Positions 2,141-6,598 of a DNA stretch of 12,985 nucleotides are shown one piece after another. Where the stretch lies: the IMG/VR virus record IMGVR_UViG_2645727562_000001, positions 1 through 12,985 of that record. The stretch is one strand, 5' to 3'. Made by a program: the position numbers and the translations under genes. Below the pieces are notes generated by a model that saw only the letters and a list, made by a program, of their open reading frames with translations, had not been told where the DNA came from and did not search any database. Position 1 is the stretch's first letter; each line of letters starts with the position of its first letter. Source of the DNA: a virus (Duplodnaviria > Heunggongvirae > Uroviricota > Caudoviricetes).

Positions 2141-3577
2141 TCAGAATCCTCCTTTCTTCTTGGACTGCGGTTCCTCGCGTTCACGGCGGCGCATTTCAGC
2201 AGACTGTTGGTCTGTGTCATAAATAGCGCCATTTGCCTGAATGCAATACACCGTGCCGGTATTGCCATGACGATTGAGGCGAAGGATTAGTTCGGTTTCA
2301 CCAGGAGGAACGCTGTCATCAAAAGCGCCTTCACGATGGATCCCCACCCAATAATCGCAATCCTGTTCAATCTGCCCTGTATCTCGTGAGTCACTTGGTA
2401 ATGGGCGTTTATTGGTTCGGCTTTCCAGTGCGCGGTTAAGCTGTGTCAGAAGCACAACAACGCAATCAAGCTCTTTGGCAAGGTTCTTCAGTCCTTTGGT
2501 GATCATGCCGTAAGCAAGGTCGTTGCGATCGGCCTTCTCAGCGGTCATTAGTGTCAGGTAATCGACCAGAATCATGCCAACACATCCTTTTTCTCGCTTG
2601 ATTCGACGGCTTTCGCTGACGATTTGAGCCAGAGATAATCCCGGCGTGTCGTCGATGTAAAGCAGGTCGATTTCACTCAAGCGATTGGCTGTTTCGATCG
2701 CCCTGTTGAAGTCACCATCGTAATCACCCTGATAGCCGTCATCAGCGTCATTTGTCGCCAGAAGGTAAAAAATATTGGGGTTAACACCTGACTTTTGCCC
2801 TACCAGTTTTTCCAGTATCTGGTCACCTGGCATTTCAAGGCTGAACATCAGAGCGGGCTTTTTCTCATGCACTGCGCAGTTGATTGCCATCTGGCTGTAT
2901 AGCGTCGTTTTCCCCATCTTAGGGCGAGCGCCAATGACAAACAAAGAGCCTTTCACCAGACCTTTCGGTGACAGCATCCTGTCCAGCGATGGGATCCCTG
3001 TGCTCATTCCTCGTTGTTCGCCTGACGGGTCAAATCGCTTCTCAAGGTCGCTAACCCAGTCTTCCATGACCTCACCAAATGAGCGAAGGCCGCGACGCGA
3101 TCCGGTTTTTGCATGGTCTGTCAGTTGCGTGAAAATCGCCTGAATAGCTTCGTACTTCTGCGTTGCAGTCATTCCGTTGCGGGAATAGAGCAATTCCGTC
3201 GCTTCAGTCATGCGGTTGATGGCGTAGCGTTCCATTGCGGTTTCACGAACCTGCATTGCATAGGCAACGATGTTTGCTGCGCTTGGCGTGTTCTTTGCGA
3301 TCTCAGCGATATAAGCAAAACCGCCAACAGACTCCGTTAACGATTTACGCTCCAGTTCATCGAAAAGCGTCAGGCCATCTACTGGCTTTTGCTCCCGGTG
3401 CATTATGGTTATTTCTTCGAAAAGGATTTTGTGTGGCCGGCTGTAAAATGAATCAGGCTTCAGCATCGCCAGAACTTTCTGGACGCGCTCACTGCTGTCA
3501 TCATCCAGAAGCAATCCACCAATCACCGCCTGCTCTGCCTCGATGCTATGGGGCGGCGCATAAAAATTATCGGTCAT
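2141..3577 (-). CDS. DnaB-family replicative DNA helicase
   Basis: Product of about 479 aa with an N-terminal DnaB-like domain (IEAEQAVIGGLLLD), Walker A (GARPKMGKTT) and a Walker B-like motif (ILVDYLTLM). ATG at 3575-3577 with GAGGGTG upstream overlaps the O-like gene 3' end; the six-frame track extends to a GTG at 3592. Confidence 0.85.
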   Translation of the reverse strand: MTDNFYAPPHSIEAEQAVIGGLLLDDDSSERVQKVLAMLKPDSFYSRPHKILFEEITIMHREQKPVDGLTLFDELERKSLTESVGGFAYIAEIAKNTPSAANIVAYAMQVRETAMERYAINRMTEATELLYSRNGMTATQKYEAIQAIFTQLTDHAKTGSRRGLRSFGEVMEDWVSDLEKRFDPSGEQRGMSTGIPSLDRMLSPKGLVKGSLFVIGARPKMGKTTLYSQMAINCAVHEKKPALMFSLEMPGDQILEKLVGQKSGVNPNIFYLLATNDADDGYQGDYDGDFNRAIETANRLSEIDLLYIDDTPGLSLAQIVSESRRIKREKGCVGMILVDYLTLMTAEKADRNDLAYGMITKGLKNLAKELDCVVVLLTQLNRALESRTNKRPLPSDSRDTGQIEQDCDYWVGIHREGAFDDSVPPGETELILRLNRHGNTGTVYCIQANGAIYDTDQQSAEMRRREREEPQSKKKGGF

Positions 3578-4532
3578 CGTGTTCACCCTCACGAACTTTC
3601 AGGTAGGTATTATCGTTAAGCAGGAAATCAAATCCCTTTTTGTGCCAGACGGTTCCGCGTTGATGGTTTGGGCGCTCTTCGAACATCCATCGGCAATTTT
3701 CGCCTACGTAGCTCAAATAATTTCTCCAGTCCTGCATCGTGAACCCATGCCCGTCAAGCTGGCGGGTTATCACTCCGGCTTTGCGCCAGAACGTTCGGAT
3801 CTGGTTTTTACGCTTGTCATTCAGTGCGCGGATTCTTGGCGCTTCAGGAAGGATTTCGTGGTAAGCATCGACAACATCCTGACAGCTAACGGAAGGTTTT
3901 TTCTTGTCAGACTTTTTGTCTGCTGCGGTACTCTCTAATACGTCAGTATTAGAGATAATATTATTATATTCTTTATCTGTGGTAATTTGCTGGTAATCTG
4001 CTGGTACAGTATTGCTTGCAGGCATTGGTATTGCTGGCTTTGAGGTGGTAATTTGCTGGTAATCTGCTGGTACAGTATTGCTTGCAGGCATTGGTATTGC
4101 TGGCTTTGAGGTGGTAATTTGCTGGTAATCTGCTGGTACAAAATTTGACTGATAATCGTCATATTTCTCTACCGAGAAAACTGAGAATTTACCGTGTGAA
4201 ACCCAGTCAATCATGCCGAGTTTTTTGAACTTTCTAAGCAGGTACTGAACGCGATCTGGTTTGAGTCCTGTTTCAAACGCCAGAGAGTTTCTACCGCCAA
4301 GTAGCTTCCCTCTGCCTACCAGAATTTCTCCTGCGTCAGTCATTACATACTCAGGCGTATGCTTTGCTTTGAGGATTAAGTGAACCCACAGATGCGCAGC
4401 TTCTGCGTCCTTGTAAAACGGCACATCCATAATTTTACGGTGCAGCAAGGCATACCCCTTACCGCTGCTTTGATGCGGTTGTTGTAGCCTTCTGGCCTCT
4501 CTGGCTTCGGCTAGATTAGATATGTTACTCAT
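3567..4532 (-). CDS. Replication initiator, lambda O-like, with internal tandem 22-aa repeats
   Basis: 321-aa ORF in the O position, immediately upstream of and overlapping the helicase gene. The central region has three copies of [22 protein letters not shown] encoded by the 66-bp DNA repeats. The conserved-looking C-terminal domain fits phage replication initiators. Confidence 0.7.
3979..4139. repeat. About 2.4 tandem copies of a 66-bp unit containing TGCTGGTA-type sub-repeats; putative replication origin iterons
   Basis: Exact 66-bp periodicity (copies begin at 3979, 4045 and 4111). Each unit holds several TGCTGGTA-like short repeats. A strongly AT-rich stretch lies next to it at 3935-3978. 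Iterons followed by an AT-rich region inside the initiator gene is the lambda ori architecture. Confidence 0.6.
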
Positions 4533-4671
4533 GACCTTTCTCCTTCTGCATCAGCTTCACTTTTTCCAACTCAGCCCGGAATCGACCAGGCTGCTTGAAG
4601 CTGGACAGGAAGCGATCACGTAGTATGTGTTTGTGAATTTTGTCCTGGTAAGGACTGAGTTGTTTTGTCAT
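4525..4671 (-). CDS. Unlisted small ORF between cII and the O-like gene, 48 aa, basic
   Basis: Reverse-complement reading gives AGGAG, six nt, then ATG (4669-4671): [48 protein letters not shown]. Its stop overlaps the O-like start codon. Below the length cutoff of the supplied track. Confidence 0.3.
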
Positions 4672-4703
4672 AATTACTCCTGTGGATTGATCCAGTAATT
4701 CCC

Positions 4704-5000
4704 TCAGAATTGCATATCAATTTGCTTAAAATCCTCGGTGGCGGCCGGGGATTTTTTCTTTGTGATTTCATCAAGCGCATACTTAAAAGCCCTGCTAATC
4801 GGACTGATGTCTGATGCCATTCCGAAAGCACACAAGACCGAAGCAATAAATCTCCAGTCCGTTCTGCTTATCTTCGATTCATGACAGCCAATCATCTTTG
4901 CCAGACCGCGCTGGGTAAGTGTTGATAGGTTGATGAGTAAATCTGTTTCTGCGCGATCAACGTCACGCTGTGATAGTTTGCTGTAACTTGTTCGTTCCAT
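4704..5000 (-). CDS. cII: CII-like transcriptional activator (divergent from lambda CII)
   Basis: 98 aa in the position downstream of cro and nutR. C-terminus [18 protein letters not shown] resembles lambda CII NKKRPAATERSEQIQMEF, and a central HTH-like segment is present. Confidence 0.7.
4741..4770 (+). ncRNA. 3' terminator hairpin of a putative OOP-like antisense RNA overlapping the cII 3' end
   Basis: Plus-strand hairpin ATCCTCGGTGGCGGCCGGGGAT (4741-4762) followed by TTTTTTCTTT, antisense to the last roughly 20 codons of cII. This is the position and form of the lambda OOP RNA terminator. The 5' end and promoter are not confidently placed. Confidence 0.4.
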
Positions 5001-5085
5001 TTCTTAAGATTTCCAATAGTGAATAGTTAGTTGAAAGGTATGCGTGGAAACGCATATGGCCTTAGTTGGTCAGATATCTTGGGAC

Positions 5086-5131
5086 TCGCTTTGTCAGCGA
5101 CGTAGGACGAATGTCCATTGTGAAAATAGCG
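5086..5131 (-). promoter_or_regulatory. nutR: boxA-like CGCTATTTT and boxB hairpin with GACAA loop
   Basis: On the minus-strand transcript just after the cro stop: CGCTATTTT (reverse complement of 5123-5131) lies where lambda has boxA CGCTCTTAC, then UCGCU-GACAA-AGCGA (reverse complement of 5086-5100). The same hairpin recurs at nutL. The loop matches the P22-type boxB as recalled. Confidence 0.5.
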
Positions 5132-5138
5132 GTGTTAC

Positions 5139-5348
<210 letters not shown>

Positions 5349-5429: not shown

Positions 5430-6153
<724 letters not shown>

Positions 6154-6160
6154 CACGTAA

Positions 6161-6598
6161 ATGATTAAAGAACGTATTTCTTATATCATTCCGATTGCGA
6201 TGGATGAAGGCAACCCAGTAACTCCAGTTCTTATCTATGAAATGGATAAAGACTCCCATGAAGTGGATCTATCATTTGGCGCTTTTTTTATCGGCCTTAA
6301 GGCTACAAAAAAATATTCCATAGGCATTGAGGTTTTCAATGCTCAAGAAATACCGATACCAATTGACACAAAACTGTACTCCAACCATAAGTTTTTTACG
6401 GTAGCAGAAGCCAACGATGGAGAAACCATCGTATCAACTTCTATGAGAATTAACTTCCCAAGGGTGAAAATTATCAAGCCTGGGATATTCGAAGTTAGAG
6501 CATCACTGGTTAATCCTGATAAAGGCGAAGTAATTGATGTAAAAAGTTCGTTTTTTGACGTGAAGATAACAGGATCAGTTCGCGATGAGTTTAGATAA
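6161..6598 (+). CDS. Unknown soluble protein, 145 aa; first gene of the cargo cassette in the rexA position
   Basis: ORF starts 8 nt after the cI stop codon. Markedly AT-rich compared with cI. No transmembrane segment or recognisable catalytic motif; alternating hydrophobic pattern suggests a beta-rich fold. The downstream gene overlaps it by 14 nt. Confidence 0.6.
   Translation: MIKERISYIIPIAMDEGNPVTPVLIYEMDKDSHEVDLSFGAFFIGLKATKKYSIGIEVFNAQEIPIPIDTKLYSNHKFFTVAEANDGETIVSTSMRINFPRVKIIKPGIFEVRASLVNPDKGEVIDVKSSFFDVKITGSVRDEFR

Follow-up and report, generated by a model that had tools for sequence, protein, structure and literature searches.

The stretch of DNA analysed here, hereafter the window, comprises 12,985 nucleotides (nt) of the Caudoviricetes record IMGVR_UViG_2645727562_000001 in IMG/VR. 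Listing of open reading frames (ORFs) and family searches identify it as the immunity and replication region of a lambdoid prophage, with the gene order cI, cro, cII, oop, orf48, O-like initiator and DnaB-like helicase. Two small elements at the junction between cII and the initiator gene are the subject of this work, namely a plus-strand antisense RNA unit related to lambda pO-oop-tO and the 48-codon minus-strand gene orf48 (Table 1). Together, they very probably represent a lambda-type oop unit and a real coding gene that is coupled to the initiator.

Table 1. Features of the cII-O junction and neighbouring genes, in coordinates of the window.
Feature	Position	Strand	Basis or remark
pO -35-like hexamer TGGTAA	4646-4651	+	17 nt upstream of the -10; 3/6 consensus match
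pO extended -10	4666-4674	+	TG 4666-4667, one base, CATAAT 4669-4674; aligns with lambda pO -10
Predicted oop RNA, ~77 nt	4682 to ~4758	+	5' G4682; 3' end in or just past T-run 4752-4757
Predicted oop 5' stem-loop domain	4682-4725	+	Outer stem 4682-4691/4716-4725; inner stem 4695-4701/4707-4713; minimum free energy and centroid fold
tO intrinsic terminator	4728-4762	+	Stem 4728-4739/4744-4755 (12 pairs), loop GGCG, T-run, tail
orf48 Shine-Dalgarno AGGAG	4677-4681	-	Homologous to the lambda O Shine-Dalgarno; adjoins the mRNA position that faces the 5' end of oop
orf48, 48 amino acids plus stop	4525-4671	-	DUF2740 member; equal to HK022 Orf48 and HK620 HkaW
AGGAG inside orf48 3' end	4540-4544	-	7 nt upstream of O start; read from sequence
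O start codon overlapping orf48 stop, ATGAGTAA	4525-4532	-	Stop TAA 4525-4527; O ATG 4530-4532
O-like replication initiator, 321 amino acids	3567-4532	-	Carries ori iterons; PHROG 345, E = 9e-89; VT2-Sakai annotation; tandem repeats
DnaB-like helicase	2141-3592	-	
cII, 98 amino acids	4704-5000	-	Pfam Phage_CII, E = 6e-32; 35% identical to lambda CII
cro	5139-5339	-	
cI	5440-6153	+	

Judged by alignment, the plus strand at 4664-4765 is homologous to the oop transcription unit of lambda, with its promoter pO, the oop RNA itself and the terminator tO. It aligns base for base with the reverse strand of lambda 38569-38739, from the pO -10 through the entire oop body to the terminator, with 109 invariant columns. 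The 33-bp conserved promoter and 5'-end block TTTGTCATAATTACTCCTGTGGATTGATCCAGT, by which Hayes et al. defined oop loci in lambdoid phages (PMC3349717), is found at 4664-4696. The -10 hexamer overlaps the start codon of orf48, whose reverse complement is the CAT at 4669-4671; in lambda, it is the start codon of O that this hexamer overlaps. Position-for-position alignment to lambda +1, 7 nt after the -10, places the oop start at G4682. The predicted RNA overlaps the last 55 nt of cII including the stop codon (4704-4758), and both overlap and length match those reported for lambda by Hayes et al. (55 nt and ~77 nt; PMC3349717). Its perfect complementarity to the pR transcript extends from the base adjoining the orf48 Shine-Dalgarno to 52 nt inside cII. 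The predicted folding energy of the 86 nt at 4680-4765 is -30.4 kcal/mol, compared to -19.2 on average for shuffled sequences (z = -3.3; 1 of 200 shuffles as good). The terminator has a GC-rich core at 4732-4751 and a T6 run at 4752-4757 followed by CTTTGTGA, and the region holds 3 terminator-like sites compared to 0.9 expected. An original prediction had proposed a GC-rich plus-strand hairpin with a T6 tail, antisense to the end of cII and OOP-like. The hairpin exists, its stem is contained in cII, and the homology to lambda bears out the OOP-like identity. The proposed placement at 4741-4770 is slightly off, covering only the 3' arm and tail of a stem that spans 4728-4755.

The arrangement has close precedents. 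The layout cII-oop-orf-O-P has been published for Stx2 II, Stx1, VT2-Sakai, HK022 and P22 (PMC3349717), and reviews mention OOP-like sequences in the cII-O region of Stx phages (PMC5488031). At the level of transcripts, oop is known by experiment from lambda and from two further phages: an oop RNA of 63 nt, which begins GAUUGAUCCAG and ends in a U-run, was sequenced from P22-infected cells (PMC13397905), and the OOP transcript is annotated in the transcriptome of prophage BTP1 (PMC7067206). Both ends of the P22 RNA fall at places equivalent to those predicted in the window. The curated P22 record BK000583 annotates an "oop promoter", an "oop terminator" and "orf48" in the same arrangement, with c1/cII ahead, the oop promoter overlapping the orf48 start and orf48 joined to the initiator by ATGAGTAA. 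P22 pO differs from the window pO by few bases only, hence promoter activity in this phage may reasonably be inferred. P22 is unlike the window in that its oop body and terminator stem are of another, shorter sequence type, and the initiator and helicase that it encodes, gp18 and gp12, are of mosaic types other than those of the window.

The second element, orf48, was originally described as an unannotated 48-residue basic ORF on the minus strand that fills the cII-O gap, carries AGGAG upstream and overlaps the O start. We recovered exactly this ORF, with 12 K/R and 6 D/E residues. "Unannotated" applies to the gene track that underlay the prediction, but the gene is annotated elsewhere, including in VT2-Sakai, P22, HK620 and RefSeq. 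VT2-Sakai carries it as H0097, "bacteriophage HK022 Orf48", and the RefSeq Prokaryotic Genome Annotation Pipeline names it "DUF2740 family protein". The protein matches Pfam DUF2740 (PF10872) over profile positions 1-43 of 43 with 99.4 bits (cutoff 27; E = 9e-29), and PHROG 1913 with E = 3e-28. It is 100% identical to HK022 Orf48, HK620 HkaW and VT2-Sakai H0097, which occupy the same position and differ in nothing of substance at the ORF; VT2-Sakai and HK022 also share the O-like initiator type of the window. Identity is 85% to P22 Orf48 and 58% to gp62 of Erwinia phage Midgardsormr38, where cII, small ORF, initiator and helicase follow in the same order. Members of the family are standalone proteins of 46-48 amino acids located between cII-like and O-like initiator genes. 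A profile search of 1.8 billion representatives returned few 50%-identity clusters, all of them standalone at 46-48 amino acids, and neither domain fusions nor a remote family. Long matches to the profile turned out to be a repeat protein and a frameshift fusion. A match in Opitutales (L015) was a chance GRFRAELEK similarity within a 754-residue protein, and the record of phage PSP2-22 (L006, marked unverified) was excluded as chimeric, with orf48 fused to other sequence. The Orf48 family bears the label "tail protein" in PHROGs, which has spread into RefSeq, e.g. NC_002371 (P22 orf48), NC_008464 and NC_019706. We rejected this label as almost certainly a mis-annotation, given that the protein has 48 residues and its gene always lies within the replication module.

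Substitution patterns indicate that orf48 is a real protein-coding gene under purifying selection, as the original prediction had considered possible. The frame is intact and of constant length in 175 loci representing 32 distinct nucleotide sequences, and it is the sole one of six frames open in 39/39 distinct sequences. Variable columns at codon positions 1, 2 and 3 number 25, 19 and 33, respectively, and the median ratio of nonsynonymous to synonymous divergence (dN/dS) is 0.24 over 431 pairs. The P22-type protein remains unchanged over synonymous divergences (dS) from the window of between 0.05 and 0.45. Across Escherichia, Salmonella, Klebsiella, Citrobacter and Pluralibacter, 21 of the 48 protein columns are invariant, and core motifs persist in the Erwinia phage homologue.

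Both translation signals of orf48 have counterparts in lambda. AGGAG sits 5 nt upstream of the ATG, and by alignment the Shine-Dalgarno and start codon are the homologues of those of lambda O. Translation of orf48 would begin at a conserved site which in lambda serves O itself. At the other end, the stop/start overlap ATGAGTAA was found in 175/176 loci, the remaining locus reading ATGGATAA. Such an invariant overlap points to translational coupling of orf48 and O, in which ribosomes finishing Orf48 would pass to the initiator start so that both proteins are made together.

The slot after oop is not reserved for orf48. In many lambdoids (L183, L195, L202, L212 and others), an unrelated 53-residue ORF (MTKRRKKYQEKEE...) takes its place, known as gp43 in HK97, gp58 in ES18 and ORF27 in ST104 and present also in phage Nil2. 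This ORF has the same conserved ribosome-binding site and ATG as orf48 and likewise overlaps the initiator start, by 14 nt instead of 8 nt. It matched no Pfam family. Homology to Orf48 was rejected at an hhalign probability of 0.6%, and the shared YQ(D/E)K is explained by the pO -35 DNA on the other strand. The exchange of non-homologous ORFs in one slot implies that position rather than sequence could be what counts. Accordingly, orf48 could be a mere leader, whose translation supplies the initiator start with ribosomes or maintains cover of the mRNA, and whose peptide has no function of its own. The invariant stop/start overlap would fit such a leader. We consider this improbable though not negligible, since a pure leader would not constrain amino acids in the way that the low dN/dS, the columns kept across genera and the stability of the protein under synonymous drift indicate.

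For the oop unit, conservation was assessed across 262 loci with the oop 5' block, the window and 261 others, which were drawn from a phage collection, from IMG/VR and from representative genomes. All 22 distinct upstream sequence types at these loci have CATAAT and the TG without variation. Among 33 distinct RNAs of the lambda/Stx length class, 99.2% of the cells of the terminator stem are paired, compared to 35-61% in slid-partner controls. At two pairs of the stem, both partners have changed in a compensatory way (CG to UA and GC to CG), and neither the pairing nor the covariation score of the real alignment was attained in any of 500 shuffles. The two compensated pairs separate two sequence families and may thus represent few events. 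In P22-like, Erwinia, Klebsiella-type and Atlantibacter phages and prophages, the place that the terminator takes with respect to cII and the -10 is occupied by a different GC-rich stem, again with a T-run. Further compensation is seen in these distant phages, e.g. GCCTCGAAGAA/TTCTTCGGGGC versus GCCTCTAAGAA/TTCTTAGGGGC.

These patterns also bear on the possibility that the hairpin is a by-product of the codons for the CII C-terminus, or terminates some other transcript, and does not belong to an antisense RNA gene. The stem does lie wholly within cII codons, and a simple promoter scan called nothing upstream of it. However, the compensatory changes between lambda and the window demand amino-acid changes in both stem arms within cII (R...ER in lambda, S...ED in the window), which argues that the stem is no by-product of the protein sequence. 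The unrelated cII/c1 tails of P22-like phages bear their own stem and T-run at the same spot, the -10 and 5' body are conserved at lambda spacing, and RNAs with these ends have been sequenced in P22 and seen in BTP1. Read on the minus strand, the stem has no usable T-run after it. A by-product or foreign terminator is therefore very unlikely. The C-terminal 18 residues of CII, which lie under oop, are the most lambda-like part of the protein, and this fits a double constraint on protein and RNA.

Promoter and protein overlap at the beginning of orf48. The -35 and spacer of pO fall within codons 2-9, the least conserved part of the protein, but the DNA motif CCTGGT is kept even in unrelated ORFs. 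At the -35 position, the sequences read TGGTAA, TGGTCA, TGGTAT or TGGAAT (the window and its equivalents in L003, L004, L183 and L223). The pattern TGG(T/A)(A/C)(A/T) recurs at the same distance in three unrelated coding contexts, namely orf48, the 53-residue ORF and a third ORF. The opposite strand reads here as Y/D/F-Q codons, and the recurrence reflects a DNA-level constraint that shows through different proteins. The overlap might suggest that the whole of orf48 is a chance open frame in DNA conserved for pO or another non-coding reason, but the promoter accounts for only ~26 of 147 nt, the rest shows third-position-biased variation, low dN/dS and interruption of the five other frames, and the ORF belongs to a curated Pfam family. 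The coding-selection tests already refute a chance frame, and we give it hardly any credence.

Several observations weigh against a functional oop unit with a coupled orf48. The pO -35 is weak, and the simple promoter scan missed pO because of its 3/6 match, so that homology and conservation were relied on instead; the P22 equivalent TGGTCA reaches 4/6. Rfam scans at the gathering threshold and at a permissive E-value gave no family at threshold and no hit to an oop model, a negative outcome that carries no information on the unit either way. Weak Rfam matches to Ref55, BSnc120 and His_leader were far below threshold and were disregarded. The register of the oop 5' stem-loop is not conserved between the window type and the lambda type, which makes this domain less certain. 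Because a good AGGAG also precedes the ATG of O, coupling is perhaps not strictly needed, and it may add to direct O initiation and not replace it. Finally, sequence, fold and literature searches gave no indication of a binding partner for Orf48.

If the oop unit acts as in lambda, pO would fire away from the replication genes and against pR transcription, and the RNA would terminate inside the end of cII. According to the accounts of Krinke and Wulff (1987, 1990) cited in PMC3349717 and PMC5488031, OOP of lambda forms with the cII-O transcript a duplex that is cleaved by RNase III, such that cII expression drops and lysis is favoured. By analogy, RNase III would cut the oop-cII duplex in this phage, with decay of the cII message and a drop in CII leading to lytic growth. 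Every sequence feature that lambda-type action would need is present in the window.

The likeness to lambda OOP extends over the whole alignable length. In both phages the RNA, as predicted for the window, is antisense, is preceded by the CATAAT -10 with its upstream TG, starts beside the site at which ribosomes bind the gene following cII and ends inside the cII 3' end. Unlike in lambda, where the -35 and spacer lie within the first O codons, they lie within orf48 in the window. Further differences include the swapped terminator pairs, a cII product only 35% identical, the 5' stem register and the fact that the window unit is known from sequence. In the window type, the oop 5' stem pairs GUGGAUUGAU with AUCAAUUUGC, a stem that the lambda sequence (L003) cannot form. 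Lambda oop allows instead AGAUCCAG with CUGGAUUU, which displaces the register by 4 nt. Within the oop 5' arm, a short direct repeat, GATTGATCC, permits either register, as judged from the fold and from reading the alignment.

The function of Orf48 is harder to approach. AlphaFold2 predicts two helices, at 7-23 and 28-44, with a mean predicted local distance difference test (pLDDT) score of 80, and the protein may be modelled as a basic two-helix hairpin. A sequence profile search of the PDB with Orf48 yielded only chance matches (E above 0.5), and Foldseek of the AlphaFold2 model against the PDB returned no matches, which is uninformative because a two-helix hairpin is too simple. In the literature searched, no function was assigned to Orf48, DUF2740 was not mentioned and mentions of orf48 were descriptive only.

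Genomic context provides a lead. Orf48 and the 53-residue ORF each occur with the same three replication modules, two with DnaB-like types and one with a primase-helicase, and all six combinations of ORF and helicase were seen. Among loci chosen by the oop pattern alone, a small ORF of either kind was present in 46/46 helicase-encoding modules and in 0/27 lambda O-P modules. The co-occurrence suggests a role tied to phage-encoded helicases, although it is a correlation in a mosaic, non-independent sample. In lambda, P recruits or loads the host helicase DnaB. Our best guess is that Orf48 is an accessory of replication modules with their own helicase. A more specific proposal would be that the small-ORF slot is a required, translationally coupled accessory of helicase-encoding lambdoid modules, with Orf48 helping the O-like initiator to recruit or load the phage helicase. 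In this specific form the proposal is speculative and rather unlikely to be correct.

The surrounding sequence carries additional signs of mosaicism. The interval 4400-5100 is 98.4% identical to Shiga-toxin phages, e.g. VT2-Sakai, Stx2 II and Stx1 phage. The window has a mosaic junction between cro and cII, as Cro is 98% identical to its lambda counterpart compared to 35% for CII. Inside the O-like gene, a 66-bp perfect tandem repeat (2.5 copies, 100% matches) covers 3979-4140 in the origin iteron region. The initiator with this repeat has 321 amino acids compared to 299 in most relatives, a length found in one other among 109 distinct downstream proteins. VT2-Sakai annotation gives two iterons in the O gene, and the window O gene has an extra 66-bp iteron unit, which looks like a recent duplication of the iteron-bearing unit. 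Directly downstream of cI and on the same strand, a 145-residue ORF (6161-6598, plus strand) occupies the position of lambda rexA/rexB. It had no Pfam match and may be an accessory or exclusion gene that the prophage expresses.

As an antisense RNA that regulates the choice between lysis and lysogeny, oop is textbook material. Both oop and Orf48 are already known, having been described and annotated in close relatives, hence neither is novel. The practical value lies in annotation, as the plus-strand RNA gene and the small ORF both deserve to be marked in this prophage. DNA matching the orf48/oop region was found in 2007/5426 complete E. coli genomes. For a protein encoded in over a third of these genomes and in Shiga-toxin phages, the strict co-occurrence of Orf48 with helicase modules offers a cheap, testable functional lead.

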